The position numbers were made by a program, and so were the translations under genes. Positions 674-16,795 of a stretch of DNA of 18,509 nucleotides are shown here, one piece after another; the first letter of the stretch is position 1; each line of letters starts with the position of its first letter. A model generated the notes under the pieces. The model saw only the letters and a list, made by a program, of their open reading frames with translations, was not told where the DNA came from and ran no database searches. The stretch lies in contig CAYVGZ010000025.1 of assembly GCA_964450845.1 (NCBI GenBank), positions 1-18,509 of the forward strand, in the 5' to 3' direction. The DNA is from an uncultured Candidatus Bathyarchaeia archaeon (GTDB taxonomy: Archaea; Thermoproteota; Bathyarchaeia; Bathyarchaeales; Bathycorpusculaceae).

Positions 674-2455
674 TTATGCTGCCCAGAATGGTTTTTTCTT
701 CCTCATTATGTTTGTGTACTCGTTTAGTGCCTCTTGTTCTTCACTTGTTAACCTGTCCATAAACGTTGTTAGCAACATTTTTGCGTGTAGTTCTGGCACT
801 TTCACGTATAAGGTGTCTTTTTCGAATATGTGTCTTCCAACCATCGGCTTGTCCATGGAAATCGCAACTTGCATTCCTTTTCCAGCTTCTGATAAGGCTT
901 TGCCTTTCTCTTGGATTTGCTGTATTTCGCCTATTTCTTCGCCATCCTCAGCTCTCACAAGAATGCTTTTCGGCTTTATATTTCCCGCCAATATTTCTAC
1001 GCCAACTATTGCTGGCTTTGCCCTTCGGAAAACATAACCTTCCAATATGCGGATTTTTGCAGGTTTAACCAGATTGTCAAATTCATGCTCAAACTTTGCT
1101 TCTCGTTTACTTTTAAGCCAAGACAAGTAATTATCTATTAGATGGTAAATTATTTTTTCCTTAAAGATCTGAACATCCTTAATTGAGGCTTCTTCTTCTG
1201 CGTCTGGCAGAATTTTAACGTTGAATGCTAAAATAGCGCCATATAAGGGCTCATGTTCCTTTACAACCGAAGCCTCTGTAACATCCCGCTTTGAAATGTC
1301 TCCTACGTCTGCCAGCCGAATGGGCACACCATTGCCTTTTAGGTTTTCGGCAATAGCCTCCAAAGAACCAAGCGTATCAGCCTTCAAAACAATCCCCTCC
1401 ACATCCGTCGCAATTCTAATTTTCTCAATCTCCTCAGAAACAAGCCTCACATACTTTTCTGGCTTTTCGCCCTCAGCAACAGCGTATAAAGGAGCTCCAG
1501 CCAAGGCTCCTTCCAAATCTGGCGAAACAATCTTCACCCCAGCTGCTGCAGACACAGAATCCACAGAGGAAAACTTGTCTCTTGGATCCCTAATCTCGTC
1601 TAACGGTTTAGGAACCAAAATCGCCCTTATCCGCGTTACAATAGGCTTTTCCTTCCCGCCCACAACTATTAAATCATTCTTCTGCAAAATTCCATCATAA
1701 ATTATGGTGTTCAATGTCAAACCTAAACCAGGCTCTTCCTTAACCTCCAAAACAGTGCCCTTCGCAGGTCCTTCAGTTGTCTGCAACCGCTTCTTCAAAT
1801 GCTGCTGTGCTAAACCAATAAGAACCATCAGAAGCTCAGTTATGCCCTCTCCAGTCTTAGCACTTGTAGGAACTATTGCGACAGTTTTTGTAAAGTCTTT
1901 AATGCGGTCGAAACGATCCGTCTTAAACCCTGACCGTGAAAAAACACCTATAATGTCGTAGAGTTTTGTGTCTAAATCCTCCCGAACGTAAGGATCCTGC
2001 GCTTGATAAGCCCTCAAAAATGGTGTGTCGGGAAAAGATTTCCAGCCTGGTACGCGGTCTATCTTGTTTGCAGCCACAAGAAAAGGTGTTTTACGTGACT
2101 TCAAAATCTCTATGCACTCGTAGGTTTGAGCCTCAAACCCACGCAGAATATCAATCACAAGGATAGCTATGTCAGCGGCGCTGCCGCCTCTTTTACGCAA
2201 GTTCGTAAAAGCCTCATGCCCTGGTGTGTCGATAACGAGCAAGCCTGGAATTTCTATTTCGCTCTTAACCATAGAAAGTAAGGGACCAACCAACTGCTTA
2301 AGTGTGTCAACTGGGAAAAAACTTGCGCCGATGTGTTGCGTGATTCCTCCAGCTTCGCGAGCTTGGACGCTTGTTTTGCGGATTTTGTCCAAAAGTAGAG
2401 TCTTGCCAGTATCTACATGGCCAAGTACGCAGACGATTGGTTGGCGAATGGGCAT
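674..2455 (-). CDS. infB: Translation initiation factor aIF5B (IF-2)
   Basis: 593 aa; IRQPIVCVLGHVDTGKT (G1), GGITQHIGA, IDTPGHEAFTNLRKRGGS (G3), ANKID (G4), C-terminal beta-barrel with FRRAKPAIVGVEIL. Normal length, no intein. AGGAGA SD upstream. Confidence 0.98.
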   Translation of the reverse strand: MPIRQPIVCVLGHVDTGKTLLLDKIRKTSVQAREAGGITQHIGASFFPVDTLKQLVGPLLSMVKSEIEIPGLLVIDTPGHEAFTNLRKRGGSAADIAILVIDILRGFEAQTYECIEILKSRKTPFLVAANKIDRVPGWKSFPDTPFLRAYQAQDPYVREDLDTKLYDIIGVFSRSGFKTDRFDRIKDFTKTVAIVPTSAKTGEGITELLMVLIGLAQQHLKKRLQTTEGPAKGTVLEVKEEPGLGLTLNTIIYDGILQKNDLIVVGGKEKPIVTRIRAILVPKPLDEIRDPRDKFSSVDSVSAAAGVKIVSPDLEGALAGAPLYAVAEGEKPEKYVRLVSEEIEKIRIATDVEGIVLKADTLGSLEAIAENLKGNGVPIRLADVGDISKRDVTEASVVKEHEPLYGAILAFNVKILPDAEEEASIKDVQIFKEKIIYHLIDNYLSWLKSKREAKFEHEFDNLVKPAKIRILEGYVFRRAKPAIVGVEILAGNIKPKSILVRAEDGEEIGEIQQIQEKGKALSEAGKGMQVAISMDKPMVGRHIFEKDTLYVKVPELHAKMLLTTFMDRLTSEEQEALNEYTNIMRKKKPFWAA

Positions 2456-2593
2456 TTTGCAACATCTCCTTGGATTTGCTTAAACAACCAGTTATTCAAT
2501 GGCGCACTTCAAAATTAATAAACTATTGCCCTAATAAACACTCAGCCTTTTTATTCACAACACATTTAAATGCGCTGCAGAATTCTTTTAGAA

Positions 2594-2926
2594 ATGGTGA
2601 AAAAGCTTTTGCCTTATTGTTTGAAATGTGGAGCAAAATTGAAGGAAGAAGATAAATTCTGTTACGCTTGTGGCACTCCAGTTGCCAAAGTTGTTAGAGA
2701 GGAGTTTGCTGTTTCTGCTGATAACCTTATTGAAAAGGTTAAGGAGTTGCTTCATGAAGGAAACGTGACGAGGATTATTGTTAAGGATGAGAAGGAAAAG
2801 GTTTTGCTCGAGATACCTGCTACTGTTGGCGTTATTGGTGCGGTTCTTGTTCCTTGGCTTGCGGCTTTAGGTGTTATAGCTGCTTTGGTTACGAATTGCA
2901 GAATTGTTGTTGAAAGAAGAGAGTAG
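2594..2926 (+). CDS. Zinc-ribbon plus DUF4342-like domain protein
   Basis: CLKC-x10-CYAC zinc ribbon followed by LIEKVKELLHEGNVTRIIVK...LLEIPATVGVIGAVLVPWLAALG...CRIVVER, which matches my recollection of the DUF4342 pattern. Start moved from 2570 to the ATG at 2594 (inferred). Confidence 0.75.
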   Translation: MVKKLLPYCLKCGAKLKEEDKFCYACGTPVAKVVREEFAVSADNLIEKVKELLHEGNVTRIIVKDEKEKVLLEIPATVGVIGAVLVPWLAALGVIAALVTNCRIVVERRE

Positions 2927-2968
2927 GGGGCTGTTGCGTGTGCGTGCGTGCAACGGCTTATAGCCCCT
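2925..2968. terminator. Inverted-repeat hairpin between convergent genes
   Basis: GCTGTTGC (2930-2937) pairs with GCAACGGC (2950-2957) with one G-U pair; outer AGGGG/CCCCT complementarity. Function unproven. Confidence 0.35.
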
Positions 2969-2981
2969 CTATTTGAAGGTA

Positions 2982-3182
2982 TTATTCTGTTTTGGCGATT
3001 AGCAGGAATACTCCTATGGCTAATAGGAATACGCTTAGAAATCCAAAAAATCCTGTAAAACTGCCTAATGCTGAAGTGCTTGTGAACGTGTAATAGGTGA
3101 TCATGGCACCGATAATAATGATTATCAAACCGAAGAATTTTTCAGCAAGCGTTATTCCGAAACCGCCTTCTTCTTCACTCAT
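2982..3182 (-). CDS. Small membrane protein, two predicted TM helices
   Basis: 66 aa with two hydrophobic stretches (FFGLIIIIIGAMITYYTF; FTGFFGFLSVFLLAIGVFLLIA); lies downstream of top6A on the same strand. Confidence 0.75.
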   Translation of the reverse strand: MSEEEGGFGITLAEKFFGLIIIIIGAMITYYTFTSTSALGSFTGFFGFLSVFLLAIGVFLLIAKTE

Positions 3183-3253
3183 ATTCTAGCCCTTCACTTT
3201 TCAATATGCCTTACACCATAGAACATGAACAGTTATTTTAAATTTCCCCCGCT

Positions 3254-4345
3254 TCACTTTGTTTCTTCAAGCTTTGCTGGCAAGTACTCATCCACAATAT
3301 ACGTTAACCCATATCTGCTGAAAGCCTCTTGCTCTGCCTTCTTCTTAATCTTCATAAACGTCTTGATTTCCCTCTGCCACAATGGGTCTTTATAGCGTGG
3401 GTCCCTCTGTAGCTCATTAAGCCTTTTCATGTCCACCTCATCCAACGGGTCCGTCGGCAGTTTGTAATTGACGATGTCTGTTGCCCACACACCGCTCCAC
3501 TTCGCGTCTGGAGTATTCAACTCTCTTAAGTGCGCAGCATTTGCAGAACCAGAAATTATCACCATGGCTATGTGCATTCCCCAGGGGTCACCGTCCGTGA
3601 AAATGTAAACTGGAAGATTTAGCTCTCCGTTCAATCTCCTGATAAAGTGCCTCGTAGCCCTAGGTGCTTGTCCAGCCGTCAAAACAAGTATGGCATTAAA
3701 CTTCTTATGCACATACTCTTCTATAAAACGTGTGAATAAGCCGCCTTTCTCTATTGCTATGACCTTGTCTGCTGTCGTTTTCACAAATTCAGAAGAAGTT
3801 AAAGCTGGTCCGATCAAGACACCGTCAGGATGAGAAGTCAAATTCATTGTTCTTCCCTCATAACCTGGCACCGTATATTCTATCGTTAAGTCGCCGAAAA
3901 CTGCTGAACGCTCTTCTGGAAAAATGTTAAAGTCTTCCCGTGAAAGGCCCAAAACTGTTTCTAAATCCGTTACAATGTTGTTTGATTCCTGCTGGTCTTT
4001 GAAAGTCATTTCGTACGCTTGAGCAGAATAGTAAACATCTCTTAAGGTTGATGTTTTCCGTTGGGAAGTAAGTTCATGAGAAAATTCTGCAGCCCAAGTA
4101 AGCTGTGTGAAAGGCTTCACATGGCGGATGTTGCGGGCGCTTCGACGAACCCTTCTATCGCCCAGAATGAACTGTCTAAGTTGCGGATCATAATGGATGT
4201 TTTCTGTTGATCTGCTGGGCATTTCCACTGATGGGAAATATCCACTATCAAGTTGTTCGTAAATTTTTTCTCCAAGATTTTCTAAACCTGATATAACTTC
4301 TTTCTTTCTTTCGATAATGCTACTTTTATGTTTCTTCTGCACCAA
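3254..4345 (-). CDS. top6A: DNA topoisomerase VI subunit A
   Basis: 363 aa; TLRDVYY catalytic Tyr motif, TOPRIM motifs AIEK, GQAPRATR, FTDGDPWG and KAEQEA. Overlaps the end of top6B by 20 nt. Confidence 0.97.
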   Translation of the reverse strand: MVQKKHKSSIIERKKEVISGLENLGEKIYEQLDSGYFPSVEMPSRSTENIHYDPQLRQFILGDRRVRRSARNIRHVKPFTQLTWAAEFSHELTSQRKTSTLRDVYYSAQAYEMTFKDQQESNNIVTDLETVLGLSREDFNIFPEERSAVFGDLTIEYTVPGYEGRTMNLTSHPDGVLIGPALTSSEFVKTTADKVIAIEKGGLFTRFIEEYVHKKFNAILVLTAGQAPRATRHFIRRLNGELNLPVYIFTDGDPWGMHIAMVIISGSANAAHLRELNTPDAKWSGVWATDIVNYKLPTDPLDEVDMKRLNELQRDPRYKDPLWQREIKTFMKIKKKAEQEAFSRYGLTYIVDEYLPAKLEETK

Positions 4346-5852
4346 ACTTTCTCACACTCTTCAACAGTTTTTCTATATCTGGAAGTTTTTCTTTACCAGC
4401 CAGTTTAGTTGAAAACTGGGCTATTTTCGGCAAATATTTGCTGAATACGCTGAGGCGTTTACGTTCTCTGTCCACATGTTCCCTTCTTGTCAAGAAATGC
4501 TGGAGTTGACGGGCAACTTCCCGCAGCCCATTACCAACTTCTCTCCTAACTTCAGGTCTGTCAGCGATGAACTCCTTTCCTACAGTTTTGTACGGAACTT
4601 TCGTGCTGCAAACATGCACCAAAATTGCAACTGACATCTCTGGCAGGATTTTATATCGTCGCCAATTCATAGAATCTATAACTTTAACCGAAACATCGCT
4701 TGCCTCATCATAAAGCAACGGAATTCTGTTAGCAAAACGGTAAATCAAGAATCTTCCTTGCTTGGGGATTTCTCCTCCATAAGCGATTGCTCCTTCAATG
4801 ATAAAGGGGTGCCCAGCATAGGTTGCTGGTTTGCGCTGATGAACAGCTACAAACTCGGGTTTTAACTCCTTCACTATCCCCGCCTTTAACAGTTCCTCAC
4901 CCAAAGGTGACAAACAGCTTGCGTCTGGCGGCAAGAATTCTCTAAACTTCTTAAGCATATGCATGAGCCTAACAATTTCCTCATGGGAAAGTTTCTTTGG
5001 ATTTTTAGACGGGCTTATGTTGCTGAATTCCAAAAACTTATTTGCACTAGTTTCTCCAACCCTGTGAAAATGACGCCTCAAAAACTCAAGCATGTTCTTA
5101 TGAGGTGTTATCTGTACAAGGCGTTGAAGAAGCTCCACATCCACACCATATGGGTGTGGTCTAGTCTCTTTTGGCGGCTCAGGCATTTCCTTCGTAATTC
5201 TTGTGAATTTATATAGTCTACCTTTAGGGTCAACAAAAGTCAAGTTCGCATAGGGGTTCATCATAGCTGTTTGTTTAAAATATTCTAGAATTTTGGGCAT
5301 TGCCCTAAAGTAGTCGCCTTCCAAGCAGAATTCAACTATTGTTCCCCTCCACTGCTCCTTGTTTATGAGAACTTTTCTGTCAAGTATGAGTGGACGATTT
5401 CTCTGTATGTCAATCATAAGCTTATACATGTAAATTTTTCCGATGCCGGTGCTTGAGAAAATGGAGGCAGGCTGATGCGTCGTAATCTGCCCGTATAGAA
5501 TTGCCATTTTTCCGCCTAGACCAAAGGTTCCCCTCTGCTGCTTCAACTTGTATTTTGAGCCGAAAAGCACTTGTCCAAAAGCTGATGGTATATGCCTTGG
5601 TGGGACTCCTATGCCGTTGTCTTCAACTCTTAATCTGTAAATTTGGGCTTCTTTGCTGGCTTCCCCCTCGTAGGAAAGCCGTACATAAATGTCTGGCGGT
5701 ATTTTGAGGCTTTCAGCAGCATCTAACGAGTTTTCCACAAGCTCCCTTATAGCTGCAAAAATGGCTCTAGATGGACTTGTAAAGCCAGCTATGTCTCTGT
5801 TTCGGTAAAAGAAATCTGAAGCACTTATCTCTTCAAACGTTGTTTGAGCCAC
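4326..5852 (-). CDS. top6B: DNA topoisomerase VI subunit B
   Basis: 508 aa; GHKL ATPase motifs RELVENSLDA, VEDNGIG, FGSKY and RGTFGLG; H2TH domain; transducer RFANRIPLLY. GTG start preceded by GGTGGAGG SD. Confidence 0.97.
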   Translation of the reverse strand: MAQTTFEEISASDFFYRNRDIAGFTSPSRAIFAAIRELVENSLDAAESLKIPPDIYVRLSYEGEASKEAQIYRLRVEDNGIGVPPRHIPSAFGQVLFGSKYKLKQQRGTFGLGGKMAILYGQITTHQPASIFSSTGIGKIYMYKLMIDIQRNRPLILDRKVLINKEQWRGTIVEFCLEGDYFRAMPKILEYFKQTAMMNPYANLTFVDPKGRLYKFTRITKEMPEPPKETRPHPYGVDVELLQRLVQITPHKNMLEFLRRHFHRVGETSANKFLEFSNISPSKNPKKLSHEEIVRLMHMLKKFREFLPPDASCLSPLGEELLKAGIVKELKPEFVAVHQRKPATYAGHPFIIEGAIAYGGEIPKQGRFLIYRFANRIPLLYDEASDVSVKVIDSMNWRRYKILPEMSVAILVHVCSTKVPYKTVGKEFIADRPEVRREVGNGLREVARQLQHFLTRREHVDRERKRLSVFSKYLPKIAQFSTKLAGKEKLPDIEKLLKSVRKFGAEET

Positions 5853-5944
5853 TTTAAGCCTCCACCAGCATCTCCTTAGCAGCCGTTCTTACGGTATACT
5901 CTGCTCATTCTTTAACTTAACCCCATTTTTTGGGTGAAAATTAT

Positions 5945-6388
5945 TCATTTTCTAAAAGGAAACGGCAATAACTCCTCAAGAGTCTTTACCTTAACACTGT
6001 TAAACAAAATTCTGCCATTTTCCACTTTTGCCATGACAACTTTAACTTTGGGGTTTTCCGCAAAATCATAAATGTATTGGAGGCATGCTCCGCACGGTCT
6101 AGGCTCGCTGTGGCTATCTATATCCGTGACTATGGCTATTTCATTAATTTTCCGATTACCATGCAAAACAGCATGATTGATTGCGTTTCTCTCAGCGCAG
6201 ACCCCAAGTCCAGAAATCCAACTCTCAACATTACATCCCTCGTAAATCTGTCCATCCTCTGCAAGCACTGCTGCGCCAACTTCAAAACCCCAAAGCACGT
6301 AAGCATTATCAATAGCCTCCAAAGCAGCTTGCAACAATTTCTTTCTCCTTTCTTCAATTTTAACCATAGTTATCCCTTGCTGATTCAT
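5945..6388 (-). CDS. cdd: Cytidine deaminase (homotetrameric CDA-type)
   Basis: VGAAVL..DG.IY.GCNVE, zinc-binding CAERNAI and PCGACLQ, C-terminal TLEELLPFPF. ATG at 6388 overlaps the ABCE1 stop (ATGA); alternative start at 6367. Confidence 0.9.
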   Translation of the reverse strand: MNQQGITMVKIEERRKKLLQAALEAIDNAYVLWGFEVGAAVLAEDGQIYEGCNVESWISGLGVCAERNAINHAVLHGNRKINEIAIVTDIDSHSEPRPCGACLQYIYDFAENPKVKVVMAKVENGRILFNSVKVKTLEELLPFPFRK

Positions 6389-8172
6389 TTCTGCAGTGAG
6401 CGCACATAATAGTACTCTCCAATTTCTTTCTGGAACTTGTCCAGTTTTGAGTCTTCTTTGTTGACCCTTGGTCTTTTCGTAAGTGGGTCTCTTCGGAAAG
6501 TCACTTCCATCTGTTTAAGAAATATGTTCATTCCTTTTCTCAGGCTCAATGGCGGATTCGCTGTGCCTCTCTCTCCAGGTTCTCCCGTGAAGACTAGTAG
6601 ATGGTCAGCTATAAAGTCCTGCGCAACCACATCGTGTTCAACAACGAAGGCTGCTATGTTGTGGGTTTCAACCACTCTTCGAATGGTCCGCGCCATATTC
6701 AACCGTTCTTCAACATCCAAGTAAGCGCTGGGTTCATCAAGCAGATAAAGGTCAGCTTTACGAGACAAGCAGGCTGCGATGGCGACTTTTTGCAGTTCTC
6801 CACCACTGAGTTCATTCACATTTCTGTCCAAAAGCAGGTTTACCCCTAAAGGCTGGAGAATTTCCGTCTTATACAAGCTTGAAGAAAAGCCCTCTTTTGC
6901 AACGCTCATTAGTAGCTCTTGGACAGTTCCCGCGTACTCTGCCGAAATATATTGAGGCTTGTAGCTTACTTTCGATTCGCTGAACTTTTGCCCGTCATCA
7001 GCCTCTTCAATGCCAGCTAAAATCTTTATGAAAGTTGTTTTGCCTATGCCGTTTGGCCCCAAGATTCCGATGATTTCGCCTCTTTTTATTTCACCTTTAT
7101 GGGCAACAAGTTTGAACCCTTCGTACGTTTTCTCTATTTGCTTCCATTTTAGCAGTGTTTCGCCAGCGCCAAAACTCACTGTAGGTGGCTTTTCATGAAA
7201 TACTATTGCTTCTTTTCTGAATCGAACGTTCTCGTCTGGAATGTAACCTTGTAGGTAAATGTTAATACCAGTTCTAACGCTGTGGACATTGGAGACTATG
7301 CCATAAACACCTGGTTCTCCGTAGAAAATGCAGATTTGGTCAGACAAGTAATCTATTATCGCTAAATCATGTTCAGCTACGATTATTGTTTTTTCTTCGT
7401 TTTTTAGACTTCTTATGGCTTTAGCTACCTCAAGTCTCTGTTTTACATCTAGGTAACTTGACGGTTCGTCGAAAAGATATGCATCAGCCTCACGACATAT
7501 TGTAGCCGCAACTGCCACGCGTTGCAGTTCGCCACCACTCAAAACTTCAAGGGAACGGTTCCATAGTTGTTTAAGTTCAAGCTGTTCAGCAATTTCATCC
7601 AGCTTTTTCCTCTCATCTACCTTTTCCAGCAACTCTCCAACGTTTCCCGACACAACCTTTGGAATTTTATCCACATACTGTGGTTTAACTGAAACTCGAA
7701 GTTTTCCATAAGCCATGTTTTGGAAATAGTCCTGTAGCGTTGAGCCTCTAAAATGCTTAACTATCTGGTCCCAATCAGGTGGTTCCTCATAGTTTCCAAG
7801 GTTTAACTTAACTTCACCAGAAAGTATTTTGAGCGTTGTTGTTTTGCCTATTCCATTCTGTCCAAGCAAGCCTAAAACCATTCCCGGAGAAGGTGTTGGA
7901 AGTCGATAAAGCTTGAAAGTGTTCTCTCCAAAACGGTGGCTGCAATCTTTCTCCAACTCGTCTGGAAGATTAACTATTGAAATGGCTTTAAACGGACATT
8001 TCTTTACGCATATTCCACATCCCGTGCAAAGGGATTCCACAATGACTGGTTTGTCATTCTCGAACCGTATGGCTTCTATGCGGCTTCGCACTATCGGGCA
8101 AAAACGATAGCACAATCTATTGCAACGTTTTGATTTGCATTTATCAGCATCTAACACAGCAACTCTTGTCAT
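6385..8172 (-). CDS. rli: Ribosome recycling ATPase ABCE1 / RNase L inhibitor homolog
   Basis: 595 aa; N-terminal 2x[4Fe-4S] Cys pattern (C..KC....C...CP; CTGCGICVKKCP), two NBDs (GQNGIGKTT, LSGGELQ, FDEPSSYLD; GPNGIGKTT, LSGGELQ, LDEPSAYLD) and hinge RPRVNK. Confidence 0.98.
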   Translation of the reverse strand: MTRVAVLDADKCKSKRCNRLCYRFCPIVRSRIEAIRFENDKPVIVESLCTGCGICVKKCPFKAISIVNLPDELEKDCSHRFGENTFKLYRLPTPSPGMVLGLLGQNGIGKTTTLKILSGEVKLNLGNYEEPPDWDQIVKHFRGSTLQDYFQNMAYGKLRVSVKPQYVDKIPKVVSGNVGELLEKVDERKKLDEIAEQLELKQLWNRSLEVLSGGELQRVAVAATICREADAYLFDEPSSYLDVKQRLEVAKAIRSLKNEEKTIIVAEHDLAIIDYLSDQICIFYGEPGVYGIVSNVHSVRTGINIYLQGYIPDENVRFRKEAIVFHEKPPTVSFGAGETLLKWKQIEKTYEGFKLVAHKGEIKRGEIIGILGPNGIGKTTFIKILAGIEEADDGQKFSESKVSYKPQYISAEYAGTVQELLMSVAKEGFSSSLYKTEILQPLGVNLLLDRNVNELSGGELQKVAIAACLSRKADLYLLDEPSAYLDVEERLNMARTIRRVVETHNIAAFVVEHDVVAQDFIADHLLVFTGEPGERGTANPPLSLRKGMNIFLKQMEVTFRRDPLTKRPRVNKEDSKLDKFQKEIGEYYYVRSLQK

Positions 8173-8207
8173 GACTAGTCCAATAATGAGAGGTCATAAC
8201 TAGTGGG

Positions 8208-8214
8208 TTATAAA
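8208..8214 (-). promoter_or_regulatory. Putative TATA box of the ABCE1-cdd unit
   Basis: TTTATAA on the minus strand about 36 nt upstream of the ABCE1 ATG. Confidence 0.5.
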
Positions 8215-8299
8215 TATGCGGTTTGAAAAAGGCGCAAATGTTGTTCGAAATGTTTTATGTATAGAAAAATGAAAAAAATTTTGTGAGGTACTTAAACTT

Positions 8300-8362
8300 T
8301 TACCATTCTTCTTCTTCCCATTCTTCTTCCTCTTCTTCTTCCCATTCCTCTTCCTCAGGCAT
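8300..8362 (-). CDS. 20-aa acidic Glu/Trp micropeptide MPEEEEWEEEEEEEWEEEEW
   Basis: ATG at 8362 to TAA at 8300; perfect GGAGGTGA SD (8369-8376) 6 nt upstream; mixed GAA/GAG codons; TATA-like TTTAAA at 8416-8421; oligo-T tracts downstream on the coding strand (8265-8278). Confidence 0.75.
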   Translation of the reverse strand: MPEEEEWEEEEEEEWEEEEW

Positions 8363-8368
8363 CTTTCT

Positions 8369-8421
8369 TCACCTCCCACCTGTTCTAGTGCTTACTGAAA
8401 GCAACCAAGCGATGCTTTAAA
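8369..8421 (-). promoter_or_regulatory. Promoter and Shine-Dalgarno of the micropeptide gene
   Basis: The minus strand reads ATAAAAATG-TTTAAAG (BRE-like plus TATA), then about 40 nt, then GGAGGTGA-N6-ATG. Confidence 0.6.
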
Positions 8422-8488
8422 CATTTTTATTCGTCAGTTGTCGAGAAAAAAATCAAGACGCAGAGGTGTCAATGTCTTTTCAGAGACG

Positions 8489-9490
8489 TTACTTCACAAT
8501 TTTGGCTGTTAAAGAAGCCGCAGGCTCCTGCATTCCTGGCTTAATATAAGCCCAACACAAGTTTGGAGAATTGTGTGCTGCACCAATTTCTCCGTGAACG
8601 TCAATAGAGATTAGCCCCATATGGTTGTACACAGATGGTATTTTTCTGTCAACAAGTCTTATTGCTAGTTCGACAGCTTCCTGAGCCGTTTTTCCATTCT
8701 CCATATAACTGCAAACAGTCTTTGCCAAAACAAGCCTTATGGCTATTTCACCAATACCAGTTGCAGAGCACGCACCAGCTTGGTTATCCGCGTATGTACC
8801 GCATCCAATCAATGGTGAATCTCCAATCCTTCCGGGAAGTTTTAAGGGAAAGCCTCCAGTTGAGGTTGCGGCTGCAACGTTTCCATCGGCGTCTAGGGCA
8901 ACTGCGCCCACAGTTTCAAGCATAAAGAGTTCTGGATAAGTTTTAACCAAATCAGCCAGCCTAGGCAGTTCAAATTTTCCATCAAGCAAGACTTTTTTCT
9001 GTTGTTCATAATATTTTAGCCTAAGTTCCGTTATCGGATTTCTTCTTTCAAGGTTAAAGATTCTGGCGAGTTTTTCTGCTCCTTCGCCAACAACAAAAAC
9101 ATGATCTGTTTTTTCCATGATTATCTTTGCTAAATGAACAGGATTTTTGATGTCTTTTAATAGCCCGGTAGCGCCGGCTTGCAGTGTTTTTCCATCCATA
9201 ATTGATGCTTCCATTTCCACACTTTTTTCTATGTTCAAACTCGAGCCACAACCAGCATTAAATGCACCGTCATCCTCCATGACCATAACGGCTTCCATGA
9301 CGCTGTCAACTGCACTTCCTCCCTTTTTTAGAATTTCAAACCCATTTTTTGCGGCTCTTTTAACTCCCTCTAGACCAGCTTGGCTACGTTCAGGCTGCCA
9401 GGTTCCAGCACCACCATGAACGATGATTACCGGTTTTTGTGTGTCTGTCAACTGCAGCTTCTCCTCATTAAAGGGGATTAGTAAACTCAT
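8489..9490 (-). CDS. Isoaspartyl peptidase / L-asparaginase (Ntn-hydrolase, asparaginase type 2 family)
   Basis: IIVHGGAG, FNAGCGS, MEASIMDG, KNPVHLA, autocleavage nucleophile TVGAVALD, AATSTGG, GRIGDSPLIGCGTYA and SATGIGE. The true start may be the TTG at 9451. Confidence 0.93.
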   Translation of the reverse strand: MSLLIPFNEEKLQLTDTQKPVIIVHGGAGTWQPERSQAGLEGVKRAAKNGFEILKKGGSAVDSVMEAVMVMEDDGAFNAGCGSSLNIEKSVEMEASIMDGKTLQAGATGLLKDIKNPVHLAKIIMEKTDHVFVVGEGAEKLARIFNLERRNPITELRLKYYEQQKKVLLDGKFELPRLADLVKTYPELFMLETVGAVALDADGNVAAATSTGGFPLKLPGRIGDSPLIGCGTYADNQAGACSATGIGEIAIRLVLAKTVCSYMENGKTAQEAVELAIRLVDRKIPSVYNHMGLISIDVHGEIGAAHNSPNLCWAYIKPGMQEPAASLTAKIVK

Positions 9491-9560
9491 GTAGCTTAAA
9501 TTTAAGTTTAGTGTTCTACAACCATCAAAATAGATAAATCTTTGTAGTGAGGTGTTAAAA

Positions 9561-9628
9561 GTGGGATGATGTGAGGCGACGGCAAGGAGCCATAAGCTGT
9601 GAAAAAGCCACTAACCTGCACTGACCTC
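9561..9628 (+). ncRNA. Box C/D 2'-O-methylation guide sRNA candidate (predicted 16S h34 targets)
   Basis: C box AUGAUGU (9566-9572), D' AGGA (9585-9588), C' GUGAAAA (9599-9605), D CUGA (9621-9624). Both box pairs can form K-turns. Guides are GGCGACGGC and ACUAACCUGC. It lies in an ORF-free gap, with a TATA-like ATAAATC at 9534-9540. Confidence 0.75.
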
Positions 9629-9730
9629 AAATTAGCCTACGACGTTTTTAATCGAGTCTTCTTTTAGAAACATTAAATTTACCTACAGATTAATAATAAT
9701 GTGGCATCTTCATTGCAATTGGTGTAGATT

Positions 9731-10255
9731 ATGCTAGGCGATTTTAACCTTTTAGCCACAACTTGGCGTAGAAACGAGGAAAATGCTTGTTCCGAGTTAC
9801 GGTATCTGCTTGAAGAAATTGGTGATTCAGCACCAACTGTTGATAAAACTGGCATTGCTGGCTTAATTACTGCGAAAACGGCTTTTAACCCCTTTGACGC
9901 TATAGAAAAGCTTCGCAAAATTTTGCATGAACGTCCCTACGAGTTTCGTTATACGCTTAGGATAATTCCCGTTGAAAAAGTTGTGTACACAGATTTAGAC
10001 GAAATTCAACAAGCAGCCAGTGAACTCGGTTCTAAAATAGGCGCGGACGAAACTTTCCGCGTTACAGTTGAGAAACGTTTTACGGAAACCCCTACACAGG
10101 GCATCATCGAAGCCGCTGCAGCAAATATTGAACGAAAAGTCAACCTAAACAATCCTGACAAAATCCTCTTGATCGAAGTTGTTGGCAGATTAACTGGAGT
10201 GTCAGTGATAAAACCTGAAGAAATCTTGGCCGTTATGAAGGAAAAAATGTTGTAA
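9731..10255 (+). CDS. Stand-alone THUMP-domain RNA-binding protein (Tan1/THUMPD1-like)
   Basis: 174 aa; N-terminal ferredoxin-like part (FNLLATT...ELRYLL, GIAGLI, FRYTLRIIP) plus THUMP core TFRVTVEKR...VNLNNPDKILLIEVVG. No catalytic domain attached. Confidence 0.88.
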   Translation: MLGDFNLLATTWRRNEENACSELRYLLEEIGDSAPTVDKTGIAGLITAKTAFNPFDAIEKLRKILHERPYEFRYTLRIIPVEKVVYTDLDEIQQAASELGSKIGADETFRVTVEKRFTETPTQGIIEAAAANIERKVNLNNPDKILLIEVVGRLTGVSVIKPEEILAVMKEKML

Positions 10256-10256
10256 A

Positions 10257-10823
10257 CTAACGCTGGGTCGCTGTTAACGCCATTCGTTCAATGACGAGAT
10301 TTGTTAAGGCTTCTTTTAAATCATCTTTTTTCATGACAGTTTTAAGCTCTGAATCTGAAATTTCAAAAGTCTTTTGGATGATTCTCTTCTTTTCTCCTGT
10401 TAACTCGAGAACTATGTCTTCGAGTTGCGCGGTAGCATTTGCTGAAATCATCGATAAAGCTGATTTTACGGCTTCAGAATTTTCTCCAATTATTAGCACC
10501 GCTATCTCTGATGTTTCAGACTTGATTCCAAGAAGTTCCATGGCCTTTCGGATTTGTCGTTGCGTAGAAGCGTAAAGCATTGTTTCCATCGCTAAACTTT
10601 TTGAAATGTTCCTATTGTTTTTGAAAGCTGTTAACGCATTCAAAACTGCAAAGTACAGGTGCTGCCATGTAGTTACATATTTAGCGTCAAAAAATTGGGT
10701 TTCCACGTTTGACCCCTTTTTCTTGCACATATTTTCTAAAAATTCTTCTAAATCCTTAATTTTCACGTTTCTAAAGCCCGTTATTGCGGCGTACTTCCCA
10801 AATTCCTCGATGTATTTTAGCAC
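10257..10823 (-). CDS. cgi121: KEOPS complex subunit Cgi121
   Basis: QFFDAKYVTTWQHLYFAVLNAL...NISKSLAMETMLYASTQRQIRKAMELLGIK and C-terminal LVIERMAL fit the archaeal Cgi121 pattern. GTG start overlaps the PRT stop. Confidence 0.85.
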   Translation of the reverse strand: MLKYIEEFGKYAAITGFRNVKIKDLEEFLENMCKKKGSNVETQFFDAKYVTTWQHLYFAVLNALTAFKNNRNISKSLAMETMLYASTQRQIRKAMELLGIKSETSEIAVLIIGENSEAVKSALSMISANATAQLEDIVLELTGEKKRIIQKTFEISDSELKTVMKKDDLKEALTNLVIERMALTATQR

Positions 10824-11428
10824 TTTTCTTCCTCAAGAATTTCCTTCAGAAATTTTTCAACAAGCTCTGCGGATATTCCAGCCTTAACAAGTTTCGCAGT
10901 TTCTTCTTCTGTAGGTGTTTTCTTTTCCCTGCATCTTTTAACGATTTTTCGGACAGTTTCTTTTATCTCCCATGGAAAAACTATCCATTTGCTTGTTTCC
11001 TTTTCGTAATAATCTGGTTTGACAATGCTCCAAGGCTTGTAATAGACTGTGGCTATTTTGACTTCCGTGGCGCCCTTTTCAATAATGTGCTCTTTTACAA
11101 GTTTCAAACTTTTGCCAGTATCAGCGACTTCATCTACAACAAGCACTTTTTTGCCAGCGACTTTCATAGAAACTGGCTGCGTTAATGTTGGTTCGCCTTT
11201 TGTTTCCGCCACCCCCAAATAGAATTCGGCTTTAACATTTGCAAGGTTAGGGTTACCCATTAAGTCTGATAAGACTCTGGCTGGTGGCCATCCGCCTCTG
11301 GAAACTCCTACAATTATGTCTGGATTGAACCTGTTTTTCCTGATTTTTTCGGCTAGATCCAGAAGCATACTGTATATCTGATTCCATGTAGGAACCTCGA
11401 ACTCGAGTTTTAAGTTCACTTGCGTCAT
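10817..11428 (-). CDS. Type I phosphoribosyltransferase (archaeal hypoxanthine/xanthine-guanine PRT-like)
   Basis: PDIIVGVSRGGWPPAR, PRPP-binding VLVVDEVADTGKSL, KPDYY and WIVFPWE. Confidence 0.9.
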   Translation of the reverse strand: MTQVNLKLEFEVPTWNQIYSMLLDLAEKIRKNRFNPDIIVGVSRGGWPPARVLSDLMGNPNLANVKAEFYLGVAETKGEPTLTQPVSMKVAGKKVLVVDEVADTGKSLKLVKEHIIEKGATEVKIATVYYKPWSIVKPDYYEKETSKWIVFPWEIKETVRKIVKRCREKKTPTEEETAKLVKAGISAELVEKFLKEILEEEKC

Positions 11429-11506
11429 CTCTCTTGAATAGAATATAAGTTATAAAAAACGTTTATTAAAAAAGATAAAAAATATATAAAAAAGAGGACG
11501 TTAATT

Positions 11507-12415
11507 TTAAGCAGATTTTGGTTTTTTGGCTCCGTACAATATTGCTCCAACGCCTACTAGTACAAATCCTAGACCGAGTAGTATGTAGCCATAGGCTTGA
11601 TTCATTATAGCTTGTGCTTCTAACATTGCTGCATCTGCTGTCTTCTTAGTAGCATTCAATTCAGCGTCTTCCATTTCTACCCCTTTGTCTCCTTCGACAG
11701 CAAATGCATCATCATACAGGTCTACGGCATTTTGATAGTGTGTTTTTGCTGCGGTAAAGTTTCCGATTGCCCAATAAGTGTCACCTTGAGATGCCTCAAC
11801 GCCAGCTTTAGTTGCTGACAGGCAACCTTCTGTGGTGCCGAAATAGTATGGAGGATAAGCACTCGCATATGCTTCGTATGTTCTAGACAAGTCCATAGCA
11901 TCTTTTTGATCCTGCGACCATACCACAAACAGATAATCATAGCTCCTTGTCCAAGTATTAGTATAATTGGATCCATAATAAGTATAATTGTATGTGGCAT
12001 ATGCAGTGTATGTATGTGCCCATGCGCTGGAAGCATCACCTTCGTCTGCTTCGAAACTAACTTCAAAATATTTGGTCTCGGCATAGTCTATCTGGACCGG
12101 CAACGTCGTGCTGCAACTCTTGTTTAAGCCCCAATCAAACACCATAAATATATCTGTAACATTTATGTTATCGCCGTAGCCATAGCCAGGATACAGATCA
12201 TTGTATATTGGTATTGTAACATGAACCATGGAACCGTCCACGTATGCAACAATGTACTTACCGTAATAACTGTCATAGCCCTTGTATACGTAGGTTCCTG
12301 GTTCCCAAATGAACGATTGAATTGATGCTTTCGCAGGTTTAAACGTAGACGCAAAAATCAAAGTAGCTAAAAGGGCAGTGAGCAACACTGTTGAAATTTT
12401 TCCTGTTTTTTTCAT
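11507..12415 (-). CDS. Exported, C-terminally membrane-anchored surface protein of unknown function
   Basis: Signal peptide MKKTGK-hydrophobic-AKA; Tyr/Thr-rich beta-like region; Ala-rich helical region; C-terminal TM YILLGLGFVLVGVGAILY followed by basic KKPK. Six N-x-S/T sequons. Confidence 0.85.
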   Translation of the reverse strand: MKKTGKISTVLLTALLATLIFASTFKPAKASIQSFIWEPGTYVYKGYDSYYGKYIVAYVDGSMVHVTIPIYNDLYPGYGYGDNINVTDIFMVFDWGLNKSCSTTLPVQIDYAETKYFEVSFEADEGDASSAWAHTYTAYATYNYTYYGSNYTNTWTRSYDYLFVVWSQDQKDAMDLSRTYEAYASAYPPYYFGTTEGCLSATKAGVEASQGDTYWAIGNFTAAKTHYQNAVDLYDDAFAVEGDKGVEMEDAELNATKKTADAAMLEAQAIMNQAYGYILLGLGFVLVGVGAILYGAKKPKSA

Positions 12416-12540
12416 ATTAACCCCTTAAGTTAATCGATTATATCCATATTGGTATAAAAAACTTGCTAAAAAATTCGCAAGACTTTTTATATTTCCGAGC
12501 TAGAGTTACGTCTAAACGTCAGTTAGAGGGTTATAAATTG

Positions 12541-13461
12541 TTGAAAAAGGTTTTCGAGTGTGTTCCTAACTTTAGCACGTCTAATCCTAAGATTGTAGAA
12601 ATGATTCTTAAGGAGATTAAAAAAACTCCGAACGCACTTCTTTTGGACTATACTTTCGACGACTATTATAACAGACTTGTTATTTCTTTTGTTGGCAACA
12701 AAAAGTCAGTGCTTGAGGCTGCTTTAAATGCGTCTTCTAAGGGCGTAGAATTGATTGACATGCGGAAACATAAGGGTCAGCATCCGCGCTTAGGTGCGGT
12801 TGACGTAGTACCATTTATTCCAATAAGAAATGTCACTTTGAAAGATTGCGTTGAACTTGCCAAAAGGTTTGGTCAAGCCTTGGCAAAAAAGACTGGTGTA
12901 CCCGTTTATCTTTACGGTGAAGCACAGTCGAAGCCTGAGCGGAAAGATTTAGACTGGATCCGTGAGGGGGAATACGAAAAGTTAGAGAAGATGATTGTTA
13001 AGCCTGGCCGCGAACCCGATTTCGGTCCGGCTAAGTTTATTCCTAAATCTGGTGCTACGATTACTGGTGCTCGTAAAGTTATGGTTGGGTTTAATGTGAA
13101 TTTGGGTACTGCTGATTTGAAGGTTGCTAAGAAAATTGCAAAGGCTTTGCATGCGGATAAGGGGGGCTTCTCAAATGTTAAGGCTATGGCTGCGTTTGTT
13201 CCTGAGAAAAATGTTACGCAGATAGGCATGAGTATAAGCGATTTTGAGAAGACGCCGCTTTATCGTGTTTTTGAAATGCTTAGGGTGGAATGTGCTCGTT
13301 ACAATGTGCCGATAGTGGGCTCGGAATTTTGTGGTATGGTTCCTTTAAAAGCTCTTGTTGACATAGCCTCGTATTATTTGAAAATTGACAATTTAACCGA
13401 AGACCGAGTGCTAGAGATAGCTGTGCAAAATGCTATGGAAAAAGGCGGTGCCTTTGAGTAA
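12541..13461 (+). CDS. ftcD: Glutamate formimidoyltransferase (FTCD formiminotransferase domain only)
   Basis: ECVPNFS, NRLVISF, IDMRKHKGQHPRLGAVDVVPFIP (catalytic His motif), VPVYLY, GATITGAR, FNVNL and GSEFCGMVP. No cyclodeaminase domain. Start inferred at TTG 12538/12541 rather than 12463. Confidence 0.93.
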   Translation: MKKVFECVPNFSTSNPKIVEMILKEIKKTPNALLLDYTFDDYYNRLVISFVGNKKSVLEAALNASSKGVELIDMRKHKGQHPRLGAVDVVPFIPIRNVTLKDCVELAKRFGQALAKKTGVPVYLYGEAQSKPERKDLDWIREGEYEKLEKMIVKPGREPDFGPAKFIPKSGATITGARKVMVGFNVNLGTADLKVAKKIAKALHADKGGFSNVKAMAAFVPEKNVTQIGMSISDFEKTPLYRVFEMLRVECARYNVPIVGSEFCGMVPLKALVDIASYYLKIDNLTEDRVLEIAVQNAMEKGGAFE

Positions 13462-14773
13462 AGCTGTTAAATCAAGGGCGAGAGAAAAGGCAGACTGGCT
13501 CATTGTAAACGCTGAAGAGCTTATTACACTTGTTGGTGGTAGCCAGAAGCCACGTATAGGGCAGCAGATGCAGGAGCTTGGAATAATATACAACGGGGGT
13601 TTAGCGGTTAAGGATGGTAGAATAGTTGCTGTCGGGAAGACTTCTGATGTTACAAAAGTTTTCAAAGCTGAAAACGTGATAAGGGCAAACGGAAAAATTG
13701 TTTTGCCAGGTTTTGTCGATCCGCATACGCATCTTGTTTTTGCTGGTTCGCGGGAGGATGAGTTTCAGATGCGGGTTGAAGGCGCCTACTACATGGTGAT
13801 TCTTCGCTCTGGCGGTGGCATATTCAAAACCGTTAAAGAAACAAGAAAGGCAAGCGCTGAAAAACTTGTGGATTTTGGTCTTAAAACGCTTGATGTCATG
13901 TTGGAGCATGGTACAACCACTGTAGAAGCCAAAAGTGGCTATGGTTTGACCACGAAGGATGAATTGAAAATTTTGGAGGCAATAAAGCGTTTATATCAGT
14001 TGCATGCCGTTGATGTTGTTCCAACTTTTTTGGGGGCTCATGCCATTCCTCCCGAATTGCAGAGCAATCCAATTGATTATGTTCACCTCGTTATTGAAGA
14101 GATGATTCCAAAAGTGGCTGAGAAGGGGCTTGCTGAGTTTTGTGATGTTTTCTGCGAGAAAGGCGTTTTCAGTTTAGAACAGACTAGACGTATTTTGGTT
14201 GCTGGCAAGAAATATGGTTTGAAGCCTAAGGTTCATGCTGACGAGATGAGTATGCTTGGCGGTGCAGAGCTTGCAGCAGACATTGGGGCTACTTCTGCAG
14301 ACCATTTGCTCTTTTCTTCTGACGAAGGCATTAAAGCCATGGCAGATAAGAGTGTGGTCGCGGTTTTGATTCCAGCAGCTGCCTTCAGCCTGATGGGTGG
14401 GCGGTATGCGGATGCCAGAAAAATGGTAGACTTTGGTGTTCCTGTGGCTTTGGGCACCGATTTTAATCCTAGTTGTTGGGTTGAAAATCAACAGTTGGTC
14501 ATAGCCTTTGCTTGTCATTTCATGAGGTTGACGGCGGCTGAAGCCATAACTGCAGCCACGATAAACGCTGCTCATGCCATAGGTCGGGCAAATGAAGTTG
14601 GCAGTTTAGAGGTTGGGAAAAAGGCTGATGTTATTGTTTTAGATGTGCCTAATCACAAGTTTCTTGGCTATCGTTTTGGCGTGAATCTCGTGGACAAGGT
14701 TATGAAAAATGGAAGGTTAGTTGTTGATAAAGAAAAACAAGGTGAAACTGTGTTTTTGCGTGAGACAGAGTGA
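13454..14773 (+). CDS. hutI: Imidazolonepropionase
   Basis: PGFVDPHTHLVFAGSREDEF, GTTTVEAKSGYGL, TFLGAHAIP, DVFCEKGVF, KVHADE, SADHL, ALGTDFNP and GSLEVGKKAD. Likely TTG start at 13454, overlapping the ftcD stop. Confidence 0.95.
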   Translation: MSKAVKSRAREKADWLIVNAEELITLVGGSQKPRIGQQMQELGIIYNGGLAVKDGRIVAVGKTSDVTKVFKAENVIRANGKIVLPGFVDPHTHLVFAGSREDEFQMRVEGAYYMVILRSGGGIFKTVKETRKASAEKLVDFGLKTLDVMLEHGTTTVEAKSGYGLTTKDELKILEAIKRLYQLHAVDVVPTFLGAHAIPPELQSNPIDYVHLVIEEMIPKVAEKGLAEFCDVFCEKGVFSLEQTRRILVAGKKYGLKPKVHADEMSMLGGAELAADIGATSADHLLFSSDEGIKAMADKSVVAVLIPAAAFSLMGGRYADARKMVDFGVPVALGTDFNPSCWVENQQLVIAFACHFMRLTAAEAITAATINAAHAIGRANEVGSLEVGKKADVIVLDVPNHKFLGYRFGVNLVDKVMKNGRLVVDKEKQGETVFLRETE

Positions 14774-14784
14774 ACATTATTCTG

Positions 14785-15030
14785 CTACGCTTTTGGTTTC
14801 AATGCTTTTCTCGCGAATGTAAAGATTAACCATACTATTATGCCGTAGATTACTCCGTTAAAGACTGCTGCTAGCAACGTTCTAACTGGGATTCCACTCC
14901 ACTCTATCGTTGAGTCTATTCCCATAGCATCACTGATTGAATTGCCTGGAGGTAGTTCAGCGTAAGCTAAGGTTGCGGCAAGGAAGATTACGAAAGCAAT
15001 TACAAATACTATTGCTCCTTCTCCTCTCAT
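14785..15030 (-). CDS. Small two-TM membrane protein of unknown function
   Basis: 81 aa with two hydrophobic helices separated by a polar loop; fills the gap between hutI and hutU on the opposite strand. Confidence 0.7.
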
Positions 15031-15139
15031 TTTGTTTCTCCCCGTTAGACTAGGCTATGATTATTGCCTCCTAATAAATTTGATTGAATGGCAAAGAATT
15101 ATAACATGTTTCTACATTCTGGTTTACGGTGAAAACACA

Positions 15140-16795
15140 TTGAAGATTGAGAAGCCTGTTAAATGTTTGACTGGCCCAGAACTGCATTGTAAAAATTGGC
15201 AGATTGAAGGCGTTCTTCGCATGCTTTGTAATGTTGTTGACCCAGAAGTGGCTAAGGACCCTGAAAGGCTCATTGTTTATGGCGGGACGGGTAAGGCTGC
15301 GCGGAATTGGGAATGTTTTGAGCGAATTGTTGAGACTTTAACAGAGCTTGAACCAGACGAAACCATGCTCATTCAAAGCGGTAAGCCTGTGGCTGTTTTT
15401 AAAACTCATGAGTGGGCTCCAAGAGCCCTAATAGTCAATGCTATGCTTGTTCCAAAATGGGCTACTTGGGACTATTTCTACGAGTTGGAGCAGAAAGGAC
15501 TAATCATGTTTGGACAGATGACTGCTGGTTCATGGGCTTACATTGGCACGCAAGGCATTTTGCAGGGCACTTATGAGACATTAGCTGCTGTGGGGAAGGA
15601 ACATTTTGTCGGTTCTTTACGTGGAAGGCTTGTTTTGACTGCTGGTTTGGGTGAGATGGGCGGGGCTCAGCCTCTGGCTGTAACTATGAATGGTGGGGTT
15701 GCGTTGGTTGTGGAAATTGACAAGCGAGCAATTGAGAGAAGGCTGAAGCATGGTTACTTAGAGGCTTGGACGGATGACTTAAATGAAGCTGTGGATATGG
15801 CTTTAGAGGCCAAGCGTGAAGGTGTACCAAAGAGTATAGGTTTGTTGGGAAATGCAGCTGAGGTGCATCCTGAACTTCTGCGAAGAAATATAATTCCAGA
15901 CGTTTTAACAGACCAAACGTCTGCTCACGATCCTTTGAACGGTTACTATCCTGCTGGCTTTTCTAAGGAAGGTGCTGACGAGCTTAGGGAGAATAATCCA
16001 GAAGAGTATTTACAGCATGCAAGTGAGAGTATGCGTGTTCACGTGGAAACTATGGTTAAGATGATGCAGAAAGGCGCTGTAACCTTTGAGTATGGTAACA
16101 ACTTGCGTCAGCGAGCCTATGATGCTGGGTTTAAAGACGCTTTTGCATATCCAGGCTTTGTGCAACGTTATATTAGACCAATGTTCTGCGAAGGTCGTGG
16201 GCCTTTCCGTTGGGCTTCCCTTGTTGGCAGCAAAGAGGACATTTACACACTTGACGACGCAATTTTGAAGGAGTTTGCCTATAACAAAGAATTGTGCCGC
16301 TGGATAGAGAAGGCAAAAGAAAAAGTGAAATTTCAAGGGTTGCCAGCGCGGGTTTGTTGGCTTGGCTTCGGCGAAAGGGCAAGATTCGGCAAGATTATAA
16401 ATGACATGGTTGCAGATGGAAGGCTTTCCGGACCAGTTTGGATTGGACGCGACCATTTGGACGGTGGAAGTGTTGCTTCGCCTAACCGAGAAACGGAAGG
16501 CATGATGGATGGAAGCGACGCAGTTGCAGATTGGCCTATACTTAATGCCTTGTTGAATGCTGTGGGTGGAGCAACATGGGTTAGTGTGCATCATGGTGGC
16601 GGCGTGGGCATAGGTTATAGTATTCATGCTGGCATGTGCTTGGTGGCTGACGGCACAAAAGAAGCAGAAAAACGCATAATGACAGTTTTAACAACAGACC
16701 CTGGAACAGCCATAGTAAGGCACGCAGACGCAGGATACAAAGAAGCACAAAAAATAGCAAGAGAAAAAGGCGTTAAAATGCCTATGTTAAAGTAG
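15140..16795 (+). CDS. hutU: Urocanate hydratase
   Basis: [24 protein letters not shown]-like [81 protein letters not shown] and SVHHGGGVG. Start inferred at TTG 15140 with GGTGA SD. Confidence 0.97.

Follow-up and report, generated by a model that had tools for sequence, protein, structure and literature searches.

A conserved box C/D sRNA of Bathyarchaeia with guides predicted to address both strands of 16S rRNA helix 34

Does a short intergenic block in a Bathyarchaeia genome encode a guide RNA that directs methylation of both strands of one ribosomal helix? The question is raised by an 18,509-nucleotide stretch of DNA from an uncultured Candidatus Bathyarchaeia archaeon (contig CAYVGZ010000025.1 of assembly GCA_964450845.1, positions 1 to 18,509; hereafter the window). 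An initial annotation, made from the sequence alone, had proposed that positions 9561–9628 hold a dual-guide box C/D small RNA (sRNA) aimed at helix 34 (h34) of 16S ribosomal RNA (rRNA). The window is contig 25 of a 1.64 Mb metagenome-assembled genome (MAG) of 120 contigs. Bathyarchaeia are abundant and largely uncultured, and our literature search found no described C/D guide RNAs from Bathyarchaeota. In what follows, the prefixes G, C, L and f mark genomes, contigs, loci and families of our dataset.

We find that the best overall explanation of this locus – to which we assign a probability of about 0.75 – is an sRNA that is made from its own promoter and guides 2'-O-methylation of both strands of h34. 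The individual parts of this reading differ in strength, and we take them in turn: the gene, its boxes, the D' guide and the D guide.

A conserved intergenic block with its own promoter motif

A BLAST search with 96 nucleotides (nt) around the candidate matched 57 of the 61 relatives compared, at 80–93% identity, and the aligned part was nearly always query 18–82, which corresponds to window 9562–9626, a block of 65 nt. Alignments of 30 relatives from about 28 genera show sharp edges to this block: conservation extends from TGGGAUGAUGU to CUGACC, with essentially random sequence on either side. This degree of conservation is far beyond chance.

A covariance model built from the conserved block (R1) scored 95.5 bits at the window locus and, within the MAG's family, gave one copy per genome in all 15 sampled. 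R1 also detected the sRNA in most families of the order, the exception being f7 (0 of 5: G024, G052, G060, G182 and G193), and in other families of the class (f20, 6 of 7; f22, 2 of 2). Outside Bathyarchaeia there was no convincing match – only marginal ones, with E values of about 0.007–0.009 (about 130 of 151 sampled Thermoproteota genomes). For this class the sRNA is a well-supported C/D family that R1 detects throughout.

No Rfam family reached its gathering threshold within the window, and the best sub-threshold likeness was to RF01124 (sR36), a Pyrococcus C/D sRNA, at 17.6 bits against a gathering threshold of 55. Minimum free energy folding of the sRNA was uninformative (z = -0.24), as expected for kink-turn RNAs.

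Upstream of the block, none of the 16 aligned loci departs from AAAA and ATAAAT, which lie 22–23 nt 5' of TGGGATGATGT, while the remaining spacer varies. From its position and its motif, we read C-AAAA-..-ATAAAT as a putative promoter of the B recognition element (BRE)/TATA type, pointing toward the sRNA. The host genome (G000) also encodes two proteins of the box C/D ribonucleoprotein (RNP), Nop5 (259.9 bits) and fibrillarin (318.8 bits), in adjoining genes on contig C106; the search for RNP proteins covered these two and did not include L7Ae.

Taken together, the conserved block, the BRE/TATA motif, the box layout described below and the Nop5 and fibrillarin genes argue that window 9562–9626 on the forward strand is almost certainly a conserved, independently promoted archaeal box C/D sRNA gene. 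The proposal of a genuine dual-guide box C/D sRNA is supported.

We considered whether the block, rather than an RNA gene, might be a regulatory site for a DNA-binding protein, serving the promoters of both divergent genes that flank it (asparaginase and THUMP). It does occupy a divergent intergenic site and keeps its place relative to the asparaginase gene. However, the positions that are conserved are precisely those of the C, D', C' and D boxes and the guides, an oriented BRE/TATA motif of its own lies upstream, the block is kept where THUMP is absent, and its invariant 9-mer is antisense to rRNA. A purely regulatory element is scarcely credible in the face of these observations.

Two observations on copy number and distribution may be recorded here. 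Two genomes contain two sRNA copies of more than 90% identity (G008, C18:8-81 and C31:41029-41100; G041, C58:1-66 and C12:5300-5365), with one copy in each genome at a contig end – either a real duplication or assembly redundancy. Family f7 is the only one of its order without a detectable sRNA; one of its genomes, G024, is also the sole relative with an altered 16S target (GCCGUCGUC), and the target of G052 is intact.

Box anatomy and stems

The coordinates of the gene and its elements are collected in Table 1. All four boxes that the initial annotation had named within 9561–9628 lie where it had placed them. The same is true of the stems it had described: the pairs that extend the C/D motif (U9572-A9620 and G9573-C9619) and the GC/GC stem with its 5-nt loop can be drawn here, and 64 distinct homologues keep them, with 95–100% retention of the seven proposed base pairs.

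Table 1. Positions of the predicted sRNA gene, its boxes, guides and stems, and its flanking signals in the window.
Feature	Position	Strand	Evidence and remarks
Putative BRE/TATA-type archaeal promoter, C-AAAA-..-ATAAAT	9526..9539	+	Alignment of 16 loci
Box C/D sRNA gene (predicted), conserved core	9562..9626	+	BLAST, alignment edges, model R1
Terminal stem, 5' half GG, pairing with CC 9625–9626	9564..9565	+	G-C in 62/62 and 56/62 homologues
Box C, AUGAUGU	9566..9572	+	Invariant in 30 relatives; 6/7 match to RUGAUGA
D' guide, 12 nt, GAGGCGACGGCA	9573..9584	+	+5 nucleotide C9580; 9574–9583 (near-)invariant
Box D', AGGA; family consensus NNGA	9585..9588	+	GA invariant
Kink-loop closing stem, G9589-C9597 and C9590-G9596, 5-nt loop 9591–9595	9589..9597	+	Pairs in 63/63 and 64/64 homologues
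Box C', GUGAAAA; UG-GA core conserved	9599..9605	+	TG of GTGA invariant; A-rich tail varies (30 relatives)
D spacer, 15 nt, ending in CACUAACCUGCA	9606..9620	+	Pairing part 9610–9619; +5 nucleotide C9616
Box D, CUGA	9621..9624	+	29/30 relatives; exception CUAA in G047
Terminal stem, 3' half CC	9625..9626	+	Invariant
T5 run, possible archaeal terminator	9645..9649	+	Sequence read directly; terminator role conjectural

Boxes C and D and the GG/CC terminal stem show little or no variation in 30 to 64 homologues, as a C/D kink-turn would require. The internal D'/C' kink-loop is likewise present, with both of its boxes degenerate; degenerate internal boxes are common in C/D sRNAs. The D' box had been given as AGGA, and AGGA is what the window reads, but only its GA is conserved, the first two positions appearing among homologues as AG, AA, GA, UA, UC or GG. 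The loop of the kink-loop ranges from 4 to more than 30 nt.

The boxes had also been described as lying at archaeal spacing. The D' spacer is exactly 12 nt; the D spacer is 15 nt here instead of the canonical 12, with a range of 13–16 nt within the family and 12 nt in f22. The A-rich 5' part of the D spacer is variable.

The D' guide and the 5' strand of h34

Targets were sought in the 16S of 16 relatives, 11 of them aligned first and 5 added. Positions in 16S were numbered from well-known E. coli landmarks and the E. coli/archaeal alignment that Dennis et al. (2015; PMC4644070) give as Additional file 4. Counted on that alignment, the nucleotides targeted by the D' and D guides are G1037 and G1184. 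With C1054, the G1064-C1192 pair and m2G1207 as the landmarks, we take these to correspond to E. coli G1061, on the 5' strand of h34, and 1197, on its 3' strand.

Positions 2–10 of the D' guide (C9583 to G9575) form nine Watson-Crick pairs with 16S GCCGUCGCC, and the +5 nucleotide, C9580, stands opposite the G of GCC-G-UC, the equivalent of E. coli G1061. The target context GGCCGUCGCCAG is present in 10 of the 11 relatives aligned first and in the 5 further relatives. The 9-mer itself occurs once per 16S in 10 of those 11 and is kept in 15 of the 16 overall; in the exception, G024, GUC replaces GCC, and G024 belongs to a family without a detected sRNA. None of 200 shuffles of the 16S locus contained the 9-mer.

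The D' guide is invariant across the class. At its margins, position 1 is U in most relatives, which gives an extra G.U pair, and position 11 is U in f11, f20 and f6, which gives an extra U-A pair with a 16S A. As the initial annotation had proposed, then, the D' guide is complementary to the 5' strand of h34 with its +5 position on G1061, and we conclude that the D' arm very probably directs 2'-O-methylation of the G1061 equivalent.

One observation runs counter to h34 as the only site of this arm. The loop and 3' strand of a 23S domain III hairpin (GCUGUCGCCUU) can form 10–11 pairs with the D' guide, including 1–2 G.U pairs, and this hairpin might be a second or even the main target, with the +5 position on a loop G. 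It was placed at about E. coli 1450–1470 via Additional file 3 of Dennis et al. (PMC4644070) and reads CAAGGC-UGUC-GCCUUG in most relatives of the family (L043:2927-2937 on the reverse strand, the 23S of G010; also L045, L185, L186 and L187). The match is found in G010, G006, G012, G004 and G044, the pairing is kept through G.U in G016 and G052 (GGUCGUCGCUU), and in G028 the sequence is a perfect GCCGUCGCC. The MAG's family has A at guide position 11, fitting the 23S U and not the 16S A; in f11 and f20 it is U, fitting the 16S A.

Nevertheless, the hairpin drifts among relatives while the guide is invariant, only 8 pairs are left in G112, and the site lies within a stable GC-rich hairpin. A G-rich guide of this kind readily finds G.U-tolerant matches, the MAG has no 23S of its own against which to compare, and the identical guide of Ignicoccus sR147 has been assigned to 16S only (PMC4644070). 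On balance we consider a 23S target improbable. As a matter of sequence, the domain III hairpin resembles the 5' strand of 16S h34.

The D guide and the 3' strand of h34

Positions 2–11 of the D guide (C9619 to A9610) pair with 16S GCAGGUCAGU with a single A.C mismatch at position 8 (A9613), so that 9 of the 10 positions pair and the +5 nucleotide, C9616, faces the first G of CAGG, the 1197 equivalent. Relatives' 16S all read GGCAGGUCAGUAUG / GCAGGTCAGT at this site. The complementarity runs exactly from position 2 to position 11 and falls in the helix that also holds the D' target; positions 2–11 are the span usually taken as accommodated in a C/D RNP. Across 9610–9620, 9 of 11 positions are at least 90% conserved in 30 relatives.

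Searching the 16S and 23S of a relative, we found h34 to be the only match to the D guide with at most one mismatch, and no better rRNA target at that threshold. A D target with U opposite A9613 was found neither in rRNA nor, above chance, in the MAG, in a search that did not systematically cover tRNAs and other RNAs. Across the MAG, complements of the guides occurred at chance frequency, equal to that of a reversed-pattern control.

Two other families of the class carry a G where the window has the mismatching A. The D guide of f22 (UUGACCUGCA) forms ten uninterrupted pairs, with G opposite the 16S C, and that of f20 (ACUGACCUC) has G at the A9613 position, with its single mismatch at position 3 instead. 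Because the site lies in the same helix, the register is exact and these distant families have G at the mismatch position, we assign the D arm to the 3' strand of h34, with which it probably pairs.

The published framework for such assignments comes from Dennis et al. (2015), who predicted targets for 489 sRNAs of seven archaea, requiring at least 9 bp of complementarity, allowing one mismatch or two G.U pairs and applying looser limits to double guides (PMC4644070). On relatives' 16S, both guides have at least 9 bp of rRNA complementarity with a Watson-Crick pair at +5, and both arms of the sRNA fall within the prediction criteria of that study.

Several observations weigh against methylation of both strands, most of them on the side of the D arm. 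The rRNA search of the MAG found no 16S or 23S, and the targets were therefore inferred from relatives' rRNA, including that of one relative of the same genus (L003). No stem covariation occurs among the 64 distinct homologues; the seven stem pairs are simply invariant, which makes them neutral as evidence. The D match is weak when taken alone: one with no more than a single mismatch also arose in 45 of 200 shuffles. Target pairing would moreover have to compete with the pairing of C9619 to G9573 and of A9620 to U9572. A9613 is at least 90% conserved in the family although the opposing 16S C is invariant, and the D spacer, at 15 nt, is longer than 12. Finally, G042, G043, G028 and family f6 have a degenerate D guide or another sequence in its place, and the h34 strands are unchanged in G042, G028 and G171 despite their variant D guides. 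Guide and target do not covary, the 16S h34 strands being identical in the lineages with variant D guides. The decay of the D guide by lineage over an unchanged h34 therefore points to a weaker, lineage-dependent constraint on the D arm.

These features invite the alternative that the C/D sRNA is real and its D' guide alone methylates, the D guide being a pairing-only (chaperone) arm or a decaying half in which the A.C mismatch and the 15-nt spacer block methylation of G1197. The position-8 mismatch facing an invariant C, the contrast with the 12-nt spacer of f22 and the loss or replacement of the guide over an unchanged 16S – which makes it dispensable in some lineages – all fit this view, and guides that pair without methylating have been described (PMC4644070). 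Against it, 9 of the 10 pairing positions, including the +5 C, are at least 90% conserved over more than 25 genera of the family, which indicates selection on the guide; the target nucleotide itself is not mismatched; and one mismatch is accepted for double guides by the published criteria (PMC4644070). We judge this alternative unlikely, if far from negligible.

The claim of the initial annotation for this arm therefore survives in part. Its register is right and the +5 rule leads to G1197, but the mismatch is fixed, the spacer is 15 nt long and the guide has decayed in several lineages. The annotation had itself cautioned that an A in the guide would mismatch the usual C at the 1200-equivalent position: that C is present in 16 of 16 relatives' 16S, but the mismatching base is A9613 and not A9614. 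We lean slightly toward the D arm methylating the G1197 equivalent; it may also pair without methylating.

A predicted guide for both strands of one helix

Our preferred reading, of an sRNA that guides methylation on both strands of h34, can be put as a series of steps. The sRNA would be transcribed from its own BRE/TATA promoter, L7Ae would bind its terminal C/D kink-turn and internal C'/D' kink-loop, and Nop5 and fibrillarin, both encoded by the host, would complete the RNP. Pairing of D' positions 2–10 with GCCGUCGCC would then place the G1061 equivalent opposite C9580 for 2'-O-methylation, and pairing of D positions 2–11 with GCAGGUCAGU, across the one A.C mismatch, would place the G1197 equivalent opposite C9616 for the same reaction. 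From the E. coli secondary structure, we take G1061 to pair with C1195, which would put the two sites two base pairs apart across h34.

The two target strands become partners in mature h34, and one RNP could hold both nascent strands near each other and then release them for annealing. We suggest a chaperone role because of this mutual pairing, as has been proposed for other archaeal double guides.

A bolder version, which we regard as distinctly improbable, would make the RNP mainly a clamp for h34 assembly. It would bind both nascent strands at once and methylate G1061 and G1197, two base pairs apart, and the A.C mismatch would weaken the D duplex so that h34 could shut. The D' arm might also touch the 23S look-alike, and the G1197 mark would be ancient – common to Thermoproteota and eukaryotes (Gm1428, Gm1490) – with guides of common origin.

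Under the preferred reading of methylation on both strands, two specific 2'-O-methyl sites are predicted in a helix of the decoding region, and one of them probably coincides with a site that is methylated in yeast, plants and humans. The understanding of box C/D RNPs as such is unchanged by this sRNA.

Gene neighbourhood and rRNA genes

Across the family the gene order corresponding to window 6385–11428 is ABCE1/RLI (-), asparaginase_2 (-), the sRNA (+), a THUMP-only protein (+), a Cgi121/KEOPS subunit (-) and a phosphoribosyltransferase (-); the guide RNA is thus adjoined by THUMP and Cgi121 genes. The sRNA lies 70–190 nt upstream of the asparaginase gene, divergent and on the opposite strand, in 66 of 80 loci that were fetched via asparaginase.

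The initial annotation had suggested examining conservation upstream of THUMP orthologues. In the window and in three other members of the family, the THUMP gene lies downstream of the sRNA in the same orientation, but in f2 the sRNA is retained and the linkage to THUMP is gone. This neighbourhood bears on a further idea, namely that the sRNA acts like snR4/U13 and, together with the THUMP-only protein encoded downstream, guides acetylation of a cytidine in the h34 CCG. In yeast the C of this CCG is acetylated (ac4C1280, helix 34; PMC5464676). The CCG lies within the stretch covered by the D' guide, and the same-strand THUMP gene in four loci would suit such a partnership. However, known acetylation guides bind to either side of a target C that is looped out (PMC5464676), whereas the CCG here is continuously paired in a canonical 12-nt D' guide. 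The sRNA also outlasts its THUMP linkage in f2, and the linkage to asparaginase is more conserved, which makes the THUMP synteny look incidental. We rejected the acetylation idea on pairing geometry and the loss of synteny in f2, and consider it highly improbable.

On the asparaginase side, the start codon of that gene (9490, reverse strand) is only about 36 nt from the TATA motif of the sRNA, and the intervening region (9491–9525) holds an A/T-rich TTAAATTTAAG beside the start codon. This arrangement suggests that the 5' leader of the asparaginase mRNA is very short or absent. Downstream of the sRNA, the T5 run is also found in the same-genus relative; across the family, the 3' flank, including this run, is not conserved.

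Examination of relatives' rRNA yielded additional observations. In G010, a near-complete relative of 2 contigs, the 16S (C1:1372047-1373541) and the 23S (C1:545363-548402) lie about 0.83 Mb apart; rRNA genes are therefore unlinked in the MAG's Bathyarchaeia family. The 16S match of G024 (L006, C7:2523-4206) spans 1684 nt, against about 1495 in relatives, and the 23S matches of G112 (L184, C4:7512-10920) and G065 (L179, C5:189101-192517) span about 3410 nt, against about 3040–3070. These insertions, of about 190 nt in the 16S of G024 and about 350 nt in the 23S of G112 and G065, are possible rRNA introns.

Comparison with known guide RNAs

We take G1428 of yeast 18S rRNA to be the first G of CAGGUC, the nucleotide predicted for the D guide, from a count back from Cm1639 on the yeast sequence that is consistent with m7G1575 and Gm1572. 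The D-guide site is probably common to the archaeal sRNA and to SNORD25/snR56. In helix 34, the literature gives Gm1428 for yeast (snR56), Gm1490 for human (SNORD25) and Gm1431 for Arabidopsis. The resemblance to SNORD25/snR56 that had been remarked on therefore probably extends to the target nucleotide, but not to the RNA: SNORD25 and snR56 have a eukaryotic architecture, long and intron-encoded, and no Rfam model of either matched at E ≤ 10 over window 9400–9800. A 10-nt antisense stretch is dictated by its universally conserved target and therefore cannot show common descent with SNORD25/snR56. Descent from SNORD25, and with it the suggestion of an archaeal counterpart by origin, is unsupported.

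Among archaeal RNAs, the sub-threshold likeness to RF01124 (sR36) covers the full model in boxes and spacing, but the guides are unrelated, making this a generic C/D likeness only. For the D' arm, box C (AUGAUGA) of Ignicoccus hospitalis sR147 precedes the D' guide GUGGCGACGGCU (PMC4644070), the guide of the Bathyarchaeia sRNA in exactly the form that it has in f11 and f20. It is assigned to U1038 of the 16S alignment, its D' box being one nucleotide closer and the target shifted by one (PMC4644070). For Sulfolobus acidocaldarius sR5 the assigned nucleotide is G1037 (PMC4644070), which is also the one predicted here for the D' guide. The second targets of these RNAs – G1075 for sR5 and G1058 for sR147 – are in the same strand region and not on the opposite strand of h34 (PMC4644070).

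For the D arm, Pyrobaculum calidifontis sR32 combines C' GUGAAGA with the D guide UACUGACCUGCG, compared with GUGAAAA and CACUAACCUGCA here, in the same register, and is assigned to alignment G1184, the first G of CAGGUC (PMC4644070). Its D spacer is 12 nt, and it has G opposite the 16S C where the Bathyarchaeia sRNA has the mismatching A. The D' guide of sR32 targets C1205, not the 5' strand of h34 (PMC4644070).

Double guides to opposite strands are also on record. In Nanoarchaeum equitans, sR17 (h28) and sR15 (h30) each carry guides to both strands of one future 16S helix and have been read as chaperones of rRNA folding (PMC4644070). The Bathyarchaeia sRNA differs from them in helix (h34), guides and phylum, and has no sequence relationship to either. 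Breuer et al. (2021) stress that the pairing of individual guides varies (PMC7994747), and the Bathyarchaeia sRNA is another example of this.

The novelty implied by the initial annotation does not hold for the sites or for the strategy: both sites and near-identical guides are already known in Crenarchaeota, on separate sRNAs, and opposite-strand double guides are likewise known (PMC4644070). What is new is the lineage and the pairing of both guides in one RNA. The Bathyarchaeia sRNA illustrates the reshuffling of guides – the same two occur on separate sRNAs in Crenarchaeota – and is a third example of one sRNA whose two guides reach both strands of a single helix.

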